Below, piece by piece: positions 8,806 to 64,000 of a stretch of DNA of 64,000 bases. The translations under genes were made by a program, and so were the position numbers. Source of the DNA: a virus; the IMG/VR virus record IMGVR_UViG_3300031951_000010; one strand, written 5' to 3'. Positions within the stretch are counted from its first letter, which is position 1; each line of letters opens with the position of its first letter. The notes under the pieces were generated by a model that was not told the origin of the DNA, did no database searches, and saw only the letters and a list, made by a program, of their open reading frames with translations.

Positions 8806-8852
8806 ATAACTCTTCTACGATCATAAAACAAAAACATCACCAACACATAAAT

Positions 8853-8891
8853 AAAAAAGAGAGAGCACAGAAGCGTCCTTCTGGCCCTCTC
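8853..8891 (-). terminator. Intrinsic terminator
   Basis: GAGAGGGCCAGAAG-GACG-CTTCTGTGCTCTCTC followed by a T-run. Confidence 0.7.
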
Positions 8892-9663
8892 GGGATGCGA
8901 TGCTGGTAGTAAGGGAGAGTTGATCAACGCACCGACTTATCAAAACTAAAACTATGATTTTTAATGGTTTTTTGACATAGTATGAAAAAAGTATTGAAAA
9001 ATCTTAATCCACTAACTGAACAATAATAAAACAAACTCAAAAAACTAATCTTAAACAATAACCAGAAGTCTCAACCAATTCAAAGGAAATGATTGCGATT
9101 TTTTCTTGATCATCATTAGATCAGCACTCAAACAACTTAGTTTTACCACTCATTTTTTCCTGCTTCTGAGGAACATTTTTTTTGTTTTTTTAAGGGATAA
9201 TTTTGTTGCTTTTTCTTATTGATAAAGTAGATATTTTTTCTCTCGTTTTTTCTTCGTTCCTCACTATTGGAGGACACTTTTTAGATTCAAAATAAGTTCT
9301 TGAAGCACCTTCCTGATTGATGACTTTTTTTAAAAAAAGTTTTCTTAATGAGTGTGGGCGAGGGTGGTGAAATGATTGATTTATAAGGCCGTTTTTTATG
9401 ATCGGATGGGGCGGAAGAATGATGGGATTGTGGTCGAAAAATGGTTTAATTGTGATTGGAAAATGACTAGTCTGTGATCGGAAAATAATCTCAAAATAAT
9501 CGGCTCTGATCGGCCCGATTGTGCTTCGATCACGATTTTCGTTTTAGAATCGTAAAAAAGGGACCATATTGGGATGATATTGGGACGAAACTGGGATAAT
9601 CGTTCCTAAATGGAGTTATGGTGTGTTTGTTGGTTGTGATCGTGGAGTTTGTGGTTTTTAGGT

Positions 9664-9771
9664 TCAGTTTTTGCTGTTTTTCTTTTTATATTGATTTTCG
9701 ATCACGAAAGTGGACAGGAATGCTGTGATCGTTGCGATCACGATCACAGCTACGATAATGTCATTGTTCAT
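9664..9771 (-). CDS. Small membrane protein (35 aa)
   Basis: MNNDIIVAVIVIATITAFLSTFVIENQYKKKNSKN; ATGA overlap with the upstream ORF. Confidence 0.55.
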   Translation of the reverse strand: MNNDIIVAVIVIATITAFLSTFVIENQYKKKNSKN

Positions 9772-9884
9772 TTTTTATTTTTCCCGATTATGTAATTGAT
9801 TGTGATCGTGATCAGTGCGGTCAGTGTTGCTAGTGCCACGATAGTTCCGATGACTGCTGTTGTTAGGATAAAGATTTCTTTCAT
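9768..9884 (-). CDS. Small membrane protein (38 aa)
   Basis: MKEIFILTTAVIGTIVALATLTALITITINYIIGKNKK; SD-like GAGAAG upstream. Confidence 0.55.
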   Translation of the reverse strand: MKEIFILTTAVIGTIVALATLTALITITINYIIGKNKK

Positions 9885-9947
9885 GATTTTCTTCTCACCA
9901 TTGTTGCGATTATAATTCCGATGATAATAATGATCGATGCGATAGTA

Positions 9948-10313
9948 TCAGCCATTTCCATTTGTTTTGCTCCATCTTGTTCCTGTTCTTGGGTGCCATA
10001 CAAATTTTTTTTGTGTTGATTTAAGAATCCACCACATGTCTCCTGGCCAAACGTCTACGATTGTATTATTTTCGTCTACGAATTTATATCCCCCGAAAGT
10101 ATTTAATGTTCCGTCTTTGGGCATAATCATTGTTGCTTCATTCCATTTGTGGTATGGGACAATAAGATCATAATCTCTTGGATTTTGGTTTTCGGGGTTC
10201 GCGGGTGACCCAACGATCCACGCATCAAGTCCATGAGTTAGTTTTGTAACAATAGCAGGAAGTGTTCTCATTTTATTTGTGATACATTGTGTTGATCGGA
10301 TGTTTTTGTCCAT
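9948..10313 (-). CDS. Minimal nucleotidyltransferase-like protein
   Basis: WIVGS...RDYDL...VDVW (GS/DxD/D pattern). Confidence 0.55.
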   Translation of the reverse strand: MDKNIRSTQCITNKMRTLPAIVTKLTHGLDAWIVGSPANPENQNPRDYDLIVPYHKWNEATMIMPKDGTLNTFGGYKFVDENNTIVDVWPGDMWWILKSTQKKFVWHPRTGTRWSKTNGNG

Positions 10314-10740
10314 TGATCATAAGTTCTTTGGCATCATTATAGAGAAGATAATCTTGCAGAAATGTATCAATGCCTTTCCACTCGACGTTTTGCCATTTCT
10401 TGGCTGCTTTCACGAATGGAAATCTCACAGCCACGGTGTTGTAGATAAATTCTTTTGATATCGCGGATGGTTTAGCTAGGATAAGAAAAGTTCCATCGCT
10501 TGCTTGTACTAAGATTCTATTTTTCAATTTGGGTTGATTATCGAGATACATAATTGTGATCATCATGAAGAATGGTATTAGGACCATTGTGAAGTACAAT
10601 ATTGCTTTGATGTTTTGTGGATTTGTGTTACAGGCTGCGATCAGGCTTCCTATTAGTGTTGAAAATAAGATAATGATCGGGGCTAGTGTTCTGATTTTAT
10701 CGACTAGTAGCAGATATCCCACGAACATTGCGAATTTCAT
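10273..10740 (-). CDS. Membrane protein
   Basis: Several hydrophobic segments; likely start MKFAMF. Confidence 0.6.
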   Translation of the reverse strand: MKFAMFVGYLLLVDKIRTLAPIIILFSTLIGSLIAACNTNPQNIKAILYFTMVLIPFFMMITIMYLDNQPKLKNRILVQASDGTFLILAKPSAISKEFIYNTVAVRFPFVKAAKKWQNVEWKGIDTFLQDYLLYNDAKELMINGQKHPINTMYHK

Positions 10741-11024
10741 CGTGGTTCTCCGAATTGGATCATGCTTGCATACCACTGATAGTCGATCTCATTAGTATCC
10801 ATAGTTTGGATTTCATTTTTGTCCCATTGAATATCGGGGTTGATTTTGAAGCATTTTGTTTGTTGGGTATTTGTTTCGTCAGTGAAGATTTTTTGTTCTG
10901 TTGTGATGGCCCAAAGTTCATCTTCTCCCATTTGTATGAATTTAATATTTCCGATCAGATTCTGGTGAAAGACTTCTTTGAGTTCTTCTTTGTTCATATT
11001 CGAGAGTTGTTTTGCTGTGATCAT
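10737..11024 (-). CDS. Hypothetical protein
   Basis: 95 aa in a tightly packed operon. Confidence 0.6.
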   Translation of the reverse strand: MITAKQLSNMNKEELKEVFHQNLIGNIKFIQMGEDELWAITTEQKIFTDETNTQQTKCFKINPDIQWDKNEIQTMDTNEIDYQWYASMIQFGEPR

Positions 11025-11046
11025 TATATTTATTCTACGATGGTGT

Positions 11047-11769
11047 TTAATCGTTTGTTTCTCTTTTTGCGTTATAGATTTCCCAATCTGTTGCTGTCAT
11101 ATCTTCATATGTTGGTGTGTACATGTTTTTATGATCGGGGTGTTTCCATATAATCTTGCTATTGGGATTATGGTATGGAATTTCCATTGTGATTCTTTCT
11201 TGTTTTGGCCACGATTGTCTTCTAATTTCTTCTCCTTCTGTTAATGATCGTGAGGCATCGTACCATGTTCTTCCCTTATTTAGTCTTTTCATTTTTTCTT
11301 TCGGGATATACCATGTTGGTTGGATATAATCGGGGTATGCGTCATCTCCGTATAACGAAGGTATTTCCCAGTTCCACGATCCTGTGTGGCTTTGTTCATA
11401 TGATGCCCATTGCCATCGTCCATTGTAGACGAATTCTGTTTTTCTACAGTTTCCTTCCGTGTGTGTTTCATACCAATGGCTAATAGGAATTGCGTCTCTA
11501 GAGTCGATAAGATCGTAATGTTCTTTGGGTGTTTTTTCTGTATTGTTTTTATTTTTTAGATATTGTTTTGCTTGTGTTGGATTTTCTTGTTTAAGACATT
11601 TGACTACATCCATGCTAAATTCTGTATAGAGTCCTTTTTGGTGAAGCCATTGGATATAGTCTGTGTCTTTTTCCATAACTTCGATCACTGTATTTCCTTT
11701 ATAGTGTCCAAAGTCCAATATTGATTCCAGTGTAAGTATTCTGCGGTTTTTTGTCACAGTTTTTTCCAT
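11047..11769 (-). CDS. Protein with N-terminal DUF3820/ExoX-C-like domain
   Basis: LDFGHYKGNTVIEV...DYIQWL motif. Confidence 0.55.
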   Translation of the reverse strand: MEKTVTKNRRILTLESILDFGHYKGNTVIEVMEKDTDYIQWLHQKGLYTEFSMDVVKCLKQENPTQAKQYLKNKNNTEKTPKEHYDLIDSRDAIPISHWYETHTEGNCRKTEFVYNGRWQWASYEQSHTGSWNWEIPSLYGDDAYPDYIQPTWYIPKEKMKRLNKGRTWYDASRSLTEGEEIRRQSWPKQERITMEIPYHNPNSKIIWKHPDHKNMYTPTYEDMTATDWEIYNAKRETND

Positions 11770-28326: not shown

Positions 28327-28623
28327 ATGCCTAAGAGCCAAATCACCCCGATCCCAAGCATGGATGTAAAGATTTCATATGAAAGAGTCCCGAATACGAA
28401 GTATGTGAATTTTTTTGCCACTTGCGCACTGGGACGAAAACAGATCGCAACCATGAAAAAGGAACGATACTCTTTCTATCTCGTGGGTGGCTATAAAAGA
28501 AGTGTGACATATTATCTTGATATGGAAGATCAGATTGAGTTTAATAGCATTGCAGAACGTCTTAAATGCGAAAGACAACCCTGGCGAATTGCCCAACATA
28601 TTGAAGAAGGAGGCTGGGAATGA
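28327..28623 (+). CDS. Hypothetical protein
   Basis: Fronted by the promoter motif. Confidence 0.65.
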   Translation: MPKSQITPIPSMDVKISYERVPNTKYVNFFATCALGRKQIATMKKERYSFYLVGGYKRSVTYYLDMEDQIEFNSIAERLKCERQPWRIAQHIEEGGWE

Positions 28624-28895
28624 AAAAAGTTTACAGACTCCCAGTTTACGACATTGTTGTTGAAATAGACAAAAAAGGCGGGACTATTGTATCCTCCCTG
28701 AAGGAGGATAATCCTTTTCATAAAAACCATACAATTGATGAAGATGAGATCATGCACGATGAATTCGATGCTTGTATGGATGGGATTGAAGCTTTAATTC
28801 TTTCTTGTGCCTGTAATGGCATTAATATTGCTTTACCTGAGTTTGTCAAATCCGTACAAGATGCTGTTTCTGCTGCAGAAAATCATTTTCTTTAA
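28620..28895 (+). CDS. Hypothetical protein
   Basis: 91 aa, DGIEALILSCAC.GINI phage-type motif. Confidence 0.65.
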   Translation: MKKVYRLPVYDIVVEIDKKGGTIVSSLKEDNPFHKNHTIDEDEIMHDEFDACMDGIEALILSCACNGINIALPEFVKSVQDAVSAAENHFL

Positions 28896-28904
28896 TTTTC
28901 TGGA

Positions 28905-29010
28905 AACTTTTTTGATATTCTGATCGTATTATAATTGGAACACAAAAGAGAAAAAGATAAATTTCGACGAGATGAGAGCAAGCTGGGGGCGCAAGCCCCC
29001 ATTGCTATTT
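28905..29010 (+). ncRNA. sRNA cassette 3 (47-nt body)
   Basis: Identical head and hairpin. Confidence 0.55.
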
Positions 29011-29052
29011 AAAAATCCCTCTTTTTCATTGTCCTGATCGGATATATGAACT

Positions 29053-29457
29053 ATGATTAATAAAATCAAAGAAATTTTTGAATGGGCAAAGTCAGATGTG
29101 CCCAACGTGGGCGATATGCCGTACACTGAAGGATATGTCGATGGACTGCGCATGGCGAAAGAGGCTGTTTTGGACATCCTTGGTGATGTGGAAGAACCGC
29201 TGAATGAAGAAGAACCAAAGCTCTCTTTAAAAATCGAGGGATTCGAGACAAGAGAACAGGCTGAAGCTTTTGTTTCATGGTATACAGGACAAGGCGAACA
29301 AGATGCAATTTTTTGGTTTGATGCCCGAGTAAATGAAGGCAATCTAGATGTTAACTTTATGCCCGTAGATAGTAAGCAAACATTTCCTTTGAAATTTGAA
29401 AACAATGAAGCAAAAGTTGTTCTTGAAATGTGCAAACCAGATTTTGACGAAGAATAA
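29053..29457 (+). CDS. Hypothetical protein
   Basis: C-terminal F.T.EQAEAFVSWYTGQGEQ motif. Confidence 0.7.
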   Translation: MINKIKEIFEWAKSDVPNVGDMPYTEGYVDGLRMAKEAVLDILGDVEEPLNEEEPKLSLKIEGFETREQAEAFVSWYTGQGEQDAIFWFDARVNEGNLDVNFMPVDSKQTFPLKFENNEAKVVLEMCKPDFDEE

Positions 29458-56840: not shown

Positions 56841-57966
56841 ATGGCAACACGAGGCTGGGAGCCCACAGACTACAATCCGAACATTATTCGTGATGTTTCT
56901 AATCGAACCATTGAAGAATTTGAAAACGATATTCGATTTTCTCGTGACTGGGGCTTCGTACAAAGTTATGGCCTTGAAAGAGCTACTCAGCTTCTGGGTC
57001 GAGCCCCAGATACCCGAGCAGTTGAATTCTTTAATGAGTTCATGTCTCAGTATTCCCGAGCCGTCGAGCTTATGGAACAGCTAGGCATCAAAAAGAAGAT
57101 TCTGAAAAAATTCAAGCGATATCCGATTGCTCCTTGTCTTTATGCTGATTTGAATGAAGAATGTAATGATGTATTGACGGGATCGAAAATCGGTGGAATT
57201 CCTGACCAGCGCCAAGCTGGAAGTGCGCTGTCTTCAAGGCAATATTGTTAGTCGCATCAAGGCAGCTTGGCCCAAGGATTCAAATGGTAAATATATGATA
57301 TTCGTTGGCCAAATCAAAGTGCCTGGACACATCGTCGCTCCCTGGGATTATATCATGGGCGAGAAAATAGACAAGTATGGAAATTATGATCGACCTCTTA
57401 ATGGGTTTAGCCACGGGCAGAACATTTTTGAACAAGAGCATACTTATTTAATTTTTCGCAGTGCGCATGCACCAAATTTTGGAGACATGTTCGATTGTGC
57501 GATGGTGCATTCTCGCTTCGATGCCAATGAATCGGTAAAGGAAGATAAATATATTGAGGCTGTGAAAAAAGCTATTCCGCAGTATCGCCGAAGCAACATG
57601 GAAGACAATTGTCCAATTTGGAGTGATCGGTGTCACACGCTAACTGATTACCGAGTTAGCATGACGCTTGATTTAATTCGCGACTTTGAATGGGCAGGTG
57701 GGTTTGAAGGCAATGTATTTGATTACATAGATTCGTGGAGAGAACACTTCGGTTCTTATGGCACAATTCAAATTTTTGGCGATCCAAGATCACAACAGAC
57801 CCCACAGCGATTTGCTGAAACACGCACTGTTTACCGTCCTCGAATGATGCGCCCGTGGCTTGGAATGACAGACCTAAAGCACGATTACACTTGGCAATAT
57901 AATTTTTGTCACGAAGGTTTTCTGAGTGAATCAATTATGGGCAAAGTTGATGGAAGCTGTACCTAA
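56841..57966 (+). pseudogene. YwqG/DUF1963-like gene split by a frameshift (56841..57251 + 57193..57966)
   Basis: GSKIGGIPD in one frame continues as WPK...MIFVGQI in the +1 frame. Confidence 0.5.
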
Positions 57967-58010
57967 TTAAAAATCCCCTGTTTTTCATGGGGGATTTTGA
58001 TATATAAGGC

Positions 58011-58412
58011 ATGGCTGATTATTACACCCATTTTTCCTTTGTCGTTGACGTTAAGAATCGTGAACAAGCAGACGGTTTGAAGAAAATGCTCACCCAGGCC
58101 AAAAATGAAGAGCTAAATGAAGAAACTTTGTACACTCCTTGGAGTTGTGAAACTAAGGACGATTTAACTAGCTTTTGGTTTCACTCTGATGATTGTGGTC
58201 AGGTTGATCTTATTGTTGACATTTTGGCTAAATGGCAAGAAGACTTCAATTACGATCAGCCCATTTGTTTTGAGTGGGCGAATACTTGTAGTAAGCCCAA
58301 ACTGGATGCTTTTGGTGGTGGGTCAGTTCTGATTTACAAGGGCGAAGCTCATTACACGAACACTTTTGATTGGTTGACTAAAAAGAAAGCCGAACTTGGA
58401 ATCGTTGACTGA
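58011..58412 (+). CDS. Hypothetical protein
   Basis: MADYYTHFSF...FEWANTCSKPKLDAFGGG phage-type family. Confidence 0.75.
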   Translation: MADYYTHFSFVVDVKNREQADGLKKMLTQAKNEELNEETLYTPWSCETKDDLTSFWFHSDDCGQVDLIVDILAKWQEDFNYDQPICFEWANTCSKPKLDAFGGGSVLIYKGEAHYTNTFDWLTKKKAELGIVD

Positions 58413-58457
58413 CTAAAAAATCCCCTGTTTTTCAATAGGGGATTTGATATATCAATT

Positions 58458-58594
58458 GTGCCAAGAAGCACTTGAAGTGCAGTCTACGGATATGCCTTAT
58501 TAGGGCATGTGATTACTGCGTAGGAAGGACAGGGTGTAATGAAGTACGGTCGCGACGAAAAGTTACATCGGGTTAAAATCCCAACTTGGCACCA
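58458..58594 (+). ncRNA. 137-nt tRNA-like RNA
   Basis: Starts at the promoter-predicted +1; GTGCCAAG/CTTGGCAC terminal stem, ends ...CCA; GCAC-N5-GTGC-AGT arm; GGG-TTAAAAT-CCC T-like arm. Confidence 0.65.
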
Positions 58595-61908: not shown

Positions 61909-62037
61909 AGATATGATGTCTGGGAAGAGAAAGATCGAATATTGAAAATTTCATACAGGTATAGATATAAAAGTGTTAGGGGGTGTTGGATCGATCTTTG
62001 ATCGCAGGCCTCACCCCCTTGATCGAGACACATTTTC

Positions 62038-62276: not shown

Positions 62277-62310
62277 GCAGGTGTAGCTCAGTGGTAGAGC
62301 GCCCGCCGCG
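62277..62310 (+). pseudogene. Orphan tRNA 5' half
   Basis: GCAGGTG-TA-GCTC-AGTGGTA-GAGC; acceptor pairs 6/7 with CTCCTGC at 62869-62875. Confidence 0.65.
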
Positions 62311-62347
62311 AAGGTTGATGGTTGCAATATCGATAAATAGATTATGT

Positions 62348-62764
62348 ATGGCAATAACAAAATACAAAGGAGCCGTCGGGCTAACTAATGTAATGGCCTG
62401 TCTTGTCAATCAAAAAGCAAAAATCTTTGTTCCAATAGACGAAGACTGTCAATATGACCTGGTGGTAGATTATCAAAATTATCTTTACAGAGTGCAAGTT
62501 AAATATGCTGAGGCAAAAAATGGCAAGATCGTTGTAAAGACGCGCTCAACGAATAACTATTGTGAAATTCGTTATACTAAAGATCATTTTGACGTGATTG
62601 CTGTTTGGGACAATGTTGGCAAAAAAGCATATTTTATTTCATCGAATTTAATCACAGAAGGAATGACGGAAATGACCTTGAGATTAGATGCACCAAAAAA
62701 CAATCAAACTAAAAACATAAGATTGGCTCGTAATTATGAGCAATTTAATGCTGCGGTCGCATAG
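62348..62764 (+). CDS. PD-(D/E)XK endonuclease (I-Ssp6803I-like)
   Basis: TK.KG...P......YDLVVD....YRVQVK...Y....FD..AV; 3' end overlaps tRNA-Thr. Confidence 0.85.
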   Translation: MAITKYKGAVGLTNVMACLVNQKAKIFVPIDEDCQYDLVVDYQNYLYRVQVKYAEAKNGKIVVKTRSTNNYCEIRYTKDHFDVIAVWDNVGKKAYFISSNLITEGMTEMTLRLDAPKNNQTKNIRLARNYEQFNAAVA

Positions 62765-62832
62765 TGGTCGATTGCACCTCTCTTGTAAAGAGGAACTCCA
62801 CACCGTGGGTTCGAATCCCACCCGTAGCTCCA
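62750..62832 (+). tRNA. tRNA-Thr(TGT)
   Basis: GCTGCGG/CCGTAGC, loop CTTGTAA, CCA; 11-nt variable region. Confidence 0.88.
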
Positions 62833-62845
62833 TTTTTCGCACATA

Positions 62846-62876
62846 TGTGTCAGGGGTTCGAATCCCCTCTCCTGCT
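62846..62876 (+). pseudogene. Orphan tRNA 3' half
   Basis: TGTC-AGGGG-TTCGAAT-CCCCT-CTCCTGC-T. Confidence 0.65.
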
Positions 62877-62946
62877 TTGAGTTGAGTGATGATATCCGAT
62901 CATAAAAAATCCCCCTTTTTCTCAATAGTGATCGGATATATAAAGT

Positions 62947-63545
62947 ATTGCTGTGAGCTAAATCAATTGACACAGCATGATGAAACCAAAATCATCTAAA
63001 AACAATAAGGTGCTCCATATACGTCTGGGAAAGATAAATTAGACGTGGACACACTGTGATGTGGACTAATCACAGCGCACTGGGGCATGTGTGCAAGCCC
63101 GAAAAGCCTATCTTTACTGATATAGTTAAAGAGAAAGAGCAGAGAGTTAAGGCTTAAAATAAACTCCATGCGTTCGTAAGGATGAACTCAAAGACGAGTT
63201 CAGTTATGACTAGGATACGAGAGGAGGGAGGCAATGAGTTTCTCTCCTCTCCCCGACAAAGCGATTTCCGACTGCTCATCGGAGAAGTGATCTAGTAAAA
63301 CACTCAGAAAAACACTAGCGTAGGAAATGCGTTAATCCCTGATTTTTTATCGGTTTTTAGAGACAAAAAACTGTTCGTATAGGGCTTGCGGTAAGCCTCT
63401 TGTTTTAGCTAGGTGATCCTGTATGTAAAAACCAAGCGGATGGAACAAATCAATTTGTTTTCGCGAGCAAATGATCCATTGACTTTGGGGAACAGCGTAA
63501 GAACGTTTCGCCATGAGGCTTTGAGCAAAGTCTCGTTCCCCAAAA
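62947..63545 (+). ncRNA. Large (~600 nt) highly structured ncRNA
   Basis: Own promoter motif whose +1 is not an ATG; no credible ORF; more than 12 consecutive hairpins; ends GGGGAAC...GTTCCCC before tRNA-Asp. Confidence 0.7.
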
Positions 63546-63558
63546 ATAAAAAGATTCT

Positions 63559-63635
63559 GGGTATGTAGTTCAGTTGGTTAGAGCACCTGCCTGTCACGCA
63601 GGAAGTCGCGAGTTCAAGTCTCGTCATATCCGCCA
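63559..63635 (+). tRNA. tRNA-Asp(GTC)
   Basis: Canonical cloverleaf, loop CTGTCAC, G73, CCA. Confidence 0.95.
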
Positions 63636-63655
63636 AAATTTCCAAAGGAGACAAA

Positions 63656-63871
63656 ATGAATAGACAAATAGAAAGCCTCGATCATCTGGTGTCTCTTGGG
63701 CTACTGACATCATATGAGTTTGTAAACGTGTCAGCCAATAACATTGAGGGCGAGATTTCAGAACATCATAATTCTGATCGATTGAAACTCATATTCCCGA
63801 ATGGGTTGGAAGTGAAGATCACTGCGATCACAACAGGCATGGAAGAAGATGCTCTTTTGAGATTGGAATAA
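63656..63871 (+). CDS. Hypothetical protein
   Basis: GGAG SD; 71 aa. Confidence 0.6.
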   Translation: MNRQIESLDHLVSLGLLTSYEFVNVSANNIEGEISEHHNSDRLKLIFPNGLEVKITAITTGMEEDALLRLE

Positions 63872-64000
63872 AAATCCCCCATTTTCAGAAGAGTGATCGG
63901 ATATAAGAAGTATGGAAGCAAAGATTTATCGCCAGGCTCATCCCCAGGATGAAAATCGTCTTTCTGTTGCCGCTGATATTTTTGCACGGCGGCACCGCCT

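Follow-up and report, generated by a model that had tools for sequence, protein, structure and literature searches.

A strongly folded, gene-free stretch before a phage tRNA-Asp is probably the gene for a large RNA

Results

Organization of the locus

The 64,000-nt stretch of viral DNA analysed here (hereafter, the window) contains rIIA/rIIB-like genes, NAPRTase and many tRNAs. It is tightly packed: by a crude count, roughly 86% of it lies within ORFs of at least 60 aa. No close relative of the window was found among 50,697 phage records. From position 62000 onwards, the plus strand carries, in this order, tRNA-Gly, tRNA-Ser, a split tRNA, a promoter cassette, a 612-nt stretch without a gene, tRNA-Asp(GTC) and an ORF of 71 aa (Table 1). 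An earlier note on this DNA had described a non-coding RNA inside the tRNA cluster, spanning 62947 to 63545. The setting is as described, in that the 612 nt sit between phage tRNA genes, and the start at 62947 stands; the end does not, and must be moved to 63558, the last base before tRNA-Asp(GTC), which the geneless stretch directly abuts. The 71-aa ORF is preceded by an AGGAG site and has no promoter cassette of its own, and the next cassette starts at 63875, just after it. We infer that this ORF is the final member of a transcription unit that comprises the promoter, the RNA, tRNA-Asp and the 71-aa gene.

Two other regions of the window were recorded in passing. At 62277-62880, the 5′ and 3′ halves of a tRNA, recognizable by their complementary acceptor strands, flank the gene of a PD-(D/E)XK endonuclease (PF11645, E 5e-23); between the same halves lies an 83-nt tRNA-Thr(TGT), which overlaps the stop codon of the endonuclease gene. 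At 8806-9947, 1.1 kb have neither an ORF of at least 60 aa on either strand nor an Rfam match; a 612-nt segment within this region (8900-9511) folds no better than its shuffles (z +1.1).

Table 1. Coordinates of the features at the locus and of the leader core in related phages. Positions are those of the window unless a contig is named.
Feature	Position	Strand	Basis or remark
11-nt perfect inverted repeat bracketing the upstream half of the cassette	62892..62939 (arms 62892-62902 / 62929-62939)	+	repeat search
Phage promoter cassette (AAAAAATCCCCC TTTTTC .. GTGATCGGATAT ATAAAGT)	62904..62946	+	core matches, weight matrix
Strongly folded ORF-free RNA candidate, begins ATT	62947..63558	+	ORFs, shuffles, partition function, Rfam search
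Predicted 5′-terminal hairpin, 7 bp, 15-nt loop with 8-nt palindrome TCAATTGA at 62963-62970	62949..62977	+	partition function, P 0.93
Two predicted local hairpins, 63021-63046 (8 bp) and 63054-63075 (7 bp)	63021..63075	+	P 0.92 each
Predicted multibranch domain, about 318 nt	63082..63399	+	single-sequence partition function
Predicted 3′ domains, 63439-63480 (inner hairpin 63454-63471) and 63484-63544	63439..63544	+	partition function, repeat search
tRNA-Asp(GTC)	63559..63635	+	ARAGORN; Rfam tRNA model 67.1 bits
AGGAG ribosome-binding site and 71-aa ORF (ORF 63656-63871)	63645..63871	+	reading frame and sequence
Leader RNA core of related phages, about 210 nt (model R1)	L005:9412-9636, L008:7477-7689, L010:603-830		after promoter, before tRNA-Asp

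A near-consensus promoter copy with ATT at the usual position of ATG

For the core of the promoter cassette, TGATCGGATAT, 20 copies were counted in the window, where 0.3 would be expected. The full cassette consists of AAAAATCCCC.TTTTC, about 8 nt, TGATCGGATAT and 7 nt; an ATG then follows at a fixed distance, without a Shine-Dalgarno sequence. The simplest reading of this arrangement is that the cassette would be a phage promoter that makes leaderless mRNAs. Because the other copies have their ATG at this fixed distance, we take the copy before the geneless stretch to be a promoter, and 62947 to be the probable +1 of its transcript.

To compare the copies, a weight matrix was built from 19 cassettes, including the one at 62928. 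This copy scores 65.1 bits, the third best in the window, and is the sole high-scoring one that lacks an ATG both at the usual position, where it reads ATT, and in the few bases around it. The earlier description of a standard promoter copy with ATT rather than ATG at +1 is thus accurate: the near-consensus cassette ends at 62946, and the ATT stands at 62947. The frame read from this ATT reaches a stop after 4 codons, so the change is not a simple start-codon knockout. Upstream, the left arm of the inverted repeat (62892-62902) is a reverse copy of the promoter core, i.e., a core match on the minus strand. A second, internal promoter was considered at 63393-63432, where a faint cassette-like stretch is found (63413), and was rejected; its score is -33.7, at rank 441 among 127,898 positions.

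Coding potential

The earlier note had seen no credible ORF in this stretch, and each further line of inquiry agrees. The longest plus-strand ORF within the 612 nt is 51 aa long, and the three plus-strand frames contain 17, 10 and 15 stop codons (42 in total). Recoding any single stop codon opens at most 103 codons on this strand, i.e., nothing of gene size. Pfam and PHROG scans of the ORF fragments of both strands gave nothing significant (best E 0.083), and an exact look-up in a collection of about 15 billion proteins showed that these fragments have never been called as genes; nor was any called gene found for them in the four long contigs on which the locus lies. Hidden coding was therefore rejected, as stop recoding, the Pfam and PHROG scans and the called-gene look-up were all negative.

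Folding and predicted structure

The minimum free energy of the 612 nt is -178.3 kcal/mol, which corresponds to a z-score of -4.5 against 20 dinucleotide shuffles and of -5.4 against 14. Forty-four control windows of 612 nt have a mean z of -1.03 (sd 1.56, minimum -5.42), with one of them as low as the candidate; when the raw minimum free energy is corrected for GC alone, the candidate ranks 33rd among 318 windows. That is, the folding exceeds chance and the signal is real, but it is not unique in this RNA-rich genome; the region belongs with the most strongly structured ones of the window. Several strongly folded stretches exist in the genome, as seen in the control windows 28500-29111 (z -5.4) and 57900-58511 (z -4.2). 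A fold computed from a single sequence is not, in itself, evidence of a functional structure (PMC8250186). The difference in folding energy between the two strands (plus minus minus), -10 kcal/mol, is well within the genome spread (sd 28) and was discarded as an uninformative strand test; the RNA is assigned to the plus strand because of the promoter and of the orientation common to all neighbouring genes.

All ten hairpins listed in the earlier note were recovered at their places, both in the sequence and in the pair probabilities. Two of them have competitors, however: CTAGT/ACTAG competes with the pairing 63209-63214/63291-63296, and GGCTT/AAGCC with the long-range helix 63092-63100/63382-63390 (P 0.98). 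In the predicted structure, the first hairpin starts 2 nt after the presumed 5′ end. The candidate's single-sequence prediction contains one large multibranch domain. This domain is closed by the helix just mentioned together with 63082-63086/63395-63399 (P 0.87-0.98), and includes predicted hairpins at 63183-63202, 63219-63251 (14 bp, of which 3 G-U), 63265-63285 and 63316-63334. The long-range closing complement of 8-9 nt is at chance level, as an 8-nt complement this far apart is expected about three times in 612 nt. Within the 3′ domains, 63484-63544 is predicted to form a 10-bp stem, TTTGGGGAAC/GTTCCCCAAA, around two hairpins. A complement between 63008-63015 and the D/anticodon-stem region of tRNA-Asp is likewise at chance level and was set aside. 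No paralogue of the RNA was found inside the window.

Comparison with catalogued RNA families

Whether the RNA belongs to a described family was examined with Rfam 15, whose 4,227 families include ROOL, GOLLD, OLE, raiA, T-box, tmRNA and RNase P. At gathering score, the window yields tRNAs and one group I intron only. A search of 1.8 kb found nothing at E<=10 between 62947 and 63558, and a search of the 621-nt region alone, with the laxest filters, returned two noise matches to microRNA models (E 5.8 and 6.5) and nothing else. Since no Rfam 15 family does better than E=5.8, the RNA is not a detectable member of any catalogued family. This was also the outcome of the covariance-model search against ROOL, GOLLD and other large RNAs that the earlier note had proposed: run with Rfam 15, it gave no match. 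Of the choice offered there, namely ROOL, GOLLD or a new class, the first two are thus contradicted (best E=5.8), and the third is not established by copies that are all identical.

The same searches bear on smaller elements. The 612 nt contain no T-box or riboswitch match to Rfam, and neither ARAGORN nor the Rfam tRNA model, even at E<=10, finds a tRNA between 62947 and 63558; a string of tRNA-like RNAs or tRNA pseudogenes was rejected, as the gap holds no tRNA match. A leader-peptide attenuator was rejected as well: the small plus-strand ORFs lack a ribosome-binding site and contain only 0-2 Asp codons, and there is one weak terminator-like site only.

Copies and relatives

In sequence collections the RNA is an orphan. 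A blastn search of 50,697 phage records found no match at E 1e-5, and what it returned at E 5 was noise; neither IMG/VR nor the JGI metagenome collection contained an exact 33-mer from the RNA. The promoter-cassette pattern gave a single chance match in IMG/VR, in GC-rich DNA. The same locus is present in four assemblies, in which 821 nt around the RNA are 100% identical. Across 20 kb, the four samples differ by at most 2 SNPs, none of them in the RNA; i.e., the population is clonal, and these data therefore carry no information on constraint.

One copy of the phage, L004, is otherwise identical and carries an extra, ORF-free element of 201 nt between tRNA-Asp and the 71-aa gene (L004:9788-9988; insertion point 63643/63644). 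This element folds with z -3.4, has complementary ends (GCTGAT...ATCAGC) and no Rfam match, and no further copy of it was found in the sequence examined. It is possibly an RNA module that is mobile or exchangeable.

Related phages were reached through the neighbouring genes. No relatives whatever were found for the upstream ORF of 209 aa; the 71-aa ORF has relatives in five other clusters only, at 65-70% identity (contigs L005-L013). Searches of all retrieved loci with the RNA, by nhmmer and blastn, found nothing.

A different structured leader in the same slot

Three of these contigs (L005, L008 and L010) keep the layout of promoter, non-coding leader, tRNA-Asp and ORF, with tRNA-Asp directly before the ORF. 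The gap before tRNA-Asp measures 258 nt in L008, 625 nt in L005 and 773 nt in L010, where it also contains a small ORF; the non-coding leader takes up 213-640 nt. The cassette of these phages is analogous, AAAACTTTCCCCCTGATTT .. CTATAG .. ATG, and one copy of it drives the leader. In two of the three lineages a stop codon comes directly after the initial ATG of the leader: the L005 leader opens with ATG-TAA, and that of L010 with ATG-TGA.

The three lineages share a leader core of about 210 nt (model R1, Table 1) with the conserved stretch CATCCCTTAGCTGGAGGGT..AAAATCGAGCGGC. Compensatory changes are seen in 11 of its 34 predicted pairs, most clearly in a 9-bp hairpin with the loop TGAGCA, and the leader is structured relative to shuffles (z -3.2 and -2.2). 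Judged by these sequence changes, the core is genuinely a structured RNA, and no Rfam family matches it. A partial second copy of the core lies at L005:9777-9822.

The candidate RNA does not belong to this family: with filters off, the best overlap of model R1 with it is at 63174-63312, with 4.0 bits and E 0.94. The core is absent from the rest of the window as well, and from the next 10 kb (L002). The two leaders are nevertheless alike in that they occupy the same slot, follow the same type of promoter with its +1 ATG neutralised, precede tRNA-Asp and the 71-aa gene, and are structured. They differ in that they have no similarity by sequence or model, and in that the relatives' leader is shorter, with its core of about 210 nt, and has compensatory changes. 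The conserved feature is therefore the layout, i.e., promoter, structured non-coding RNA, tRNA-Asp and small gene, while the RNA that fills the slot differs by lineage. Across the clade, the +1 ATG is neutralised in three ways, namely ATT, ATG-TAA and ATG-TGA. That the sequence at the slot turns over follows from the 4.0 bits scored here by R1; a dispensable spacer would turn over too.

Two further observations were made in the related contigs. At L008:8007, 10214, 10361 and 11163 (and 7440), a promoter sub-type has CTCTTTTC.AATGGGGATT in place of CTGATTT. The stretches that follow it, among them a gene-free gap of 1.3 kb (9935-11206), lack both an ATG and a called gene, which suggests that L008 contains further RNA genes with a promoter flavour of their own. 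In the short contigs L012 (90-185) and L013 (1-100), the element before the 71/75-aa gene resembles tRNA-Asp in the context of its GTC anticodon stem and loop, but its body is abnormal and longer; a tRNA mimic may have taken the place of tRNA-Asp here.

The 3′ end of the transcript

The sole terminator-like site on the plus strand is a weak hairpin at 63382-63398 followed by CTTGTTTT, with 5 T in 8 positions and G-C-poor flanks; this hairpin competes with the long-range helix 63092-63100/63382-63390. The final stem of the RNA is trailed by an A-rich tract, without a T-run. Because no convincing terminator is present, transcription should continue into tRNA-Asp. From the general course of tRNA maturation, RNase P would then cut at the 5′ end of tRNA-Asp, which would set the 3′ end of the upstream RNA and release it as a 612-nt molecule.

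Discussion

The stretch 62947-63558 is probably the gene for a large folded RNA. More specifically, we propose that it is a structured RNA module specific to this lineage, which is transcribed together with tRNA-Asp and separated from it by RNase P, a reading to which we give about an even chance. Transcription would start from the phage promoter cassette at or beside 62947. With ATT in place of the +1 ATG, ribosomes that load on a leaderless 5′ AUG would not engage the transcript, which is predicted to fold into a 5′-terminal hairpin, a large multibranch central domain and two 3′ domains. RNA polymerase would read on into tRNA-Asp, and cleavage by RNase P would free an RNA of about 612 nt with a structured 5′ end, which would then act as a separate module. 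The position would represent a conserved 'slot', filled by a different structured RNA in related phages and, in one variant, complemented by the extra 201-nt module after the tRNA.

Known phage RNAs provide precedents for such a molecule. The stable RNAs species 1 and 2 of T4 (rnaC and rnaD) are non-coding, transcribed together with phage tRNAs and released by tRNA-processing enzymes. The maturation logic is the same as that proposed for the 612-nt RNA, although species 1 and 2 are much shorter, about 120-140 nt. ROOL and GOLLD are among the least understood bacterial RNAs, and form RNA-only cages of unknown purpose. The average length of ROOL is 581 nt, and both RNAs often occur near tRNA islands in phages (PMC5737381, PMC12286853). 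The candidate resembles ROOL (RF03087) in its length of 612 nt, between phage tRNA genes, and in being phage-encoded, adjacent to tRNA genes and probably co-transcribed with them (PMC5737381, PMC12286853), as well as in its predicted multi-helix fold and in that no protein partner is evident; it differs in that the ROOL covariance model has no match here, where the RNA has no family of homologues. GOLLD (RF01998) is similar in being a large phage or prophage RNA near tRNA islands (PMC12286853). [quoted passage not shown] Our preferred guess is that the candidate may be a stable trans-acting RNA of the same kind as ROOL, GOLLD and T4 species 1 and 2; that it regulates the tRNA seems less likely to us.

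The main alternative, which we consider fairly unlikely, is a leader that acts in cis and serves tRNA-Asp and the 71-aa gene only, by protecting the 5′ end against RNase E or 5′-end-dependent decay, by setting the timing or amount of tRNA-Asp through a switch at 63382-63398, or by guiding processing. The position of the slot is conserved and its sequence is not, which points to a role tied to place; the hairpin 2 nt from the presumed 5′ end would suit protection, and the competition between the terminator-like hairpin and the long-range helix would suit a switch. On the other hand, by the standard of stabilising leaders 612 nt is a great length, the terminator-like site is a weak one, and the stretch has neither an Asp-codon-rich leader peptide nor a T-box or riboswitch match. 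In addition, the core of the relatives' leader is conserved in sequence in three lineages, which suggests a sequence-specific module and not generic padding.

It is also unlikely, in our view, that the stretch has no function and is what is left of at least one decayed gene cassette, or debris of recombination, where a homing endonuclease has reshuffled the region; its promoter would then still fire or be a relic itself. The RNA has no relatives in the collections searched, the tRNA directly upstream is interrupted by tRNA-Thr and the gene of a PD-(D/E)XK endonuclease, ATT is what a single G-to-T change in ATG would give, and a cassette-like stretch, albeit a faint and low-scoring one, lies within the RNA. 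Debris would explain the missing homologues, but neither the excess of folding nor the consensus promoter: nothing in the decay of a coding sequence would make it fold 4-5 sd better than shuffled versions of itself, and the cassette is a near-perfect copy of the consensus. Moreover, no frame keeps any similarity to a protein, and the genome is otherwise tightly packed. Finally, the idea that the RNA is a strongly diverged ROOL, GOLLD or other large RNA already in the catalogue is close to refuted, despite a length near the ROOL average and the tRNA-island context (PMC5737381, PMC12286853). Searched by itself under the most permissive filters, the region gives no Rfam 15 match at E<5, and no family matches the stretch at gathering score.

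The reading of the stretch as a released RNA module can be extended, tentatively, to the proposal that it is the founding member of a new class of phage RNAs of about 600 nt, i.e., an analogue of ROOL and GOLLD that is unrelated to them, is transcribed from a leaderless-type promoter with a disabled start, matures by RNase P cleavage of a tRNA-Asp precursor, and belongs to a set of exchangeable modules in the tRNA operons of jumbo phages; we regard this broader proposal as possible rather than probable. As an orphan represented by a single sequence, the RNA has its value as a candidate for transcript mapping and structure probing, not as an established discovery. Within the clade, a simple rule would apply: promoters normally put ATG at the start of the transcript, and RNA genes would be recognisable by ATT, or by ATG-TAA or ATG-TGA, at the same place. 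If the RNA is indeed an unrelated example, a big RNA before a tRNA would have arisen more than once, which would point to a general need of infection that is tied to the supply or processing of tRNAs.
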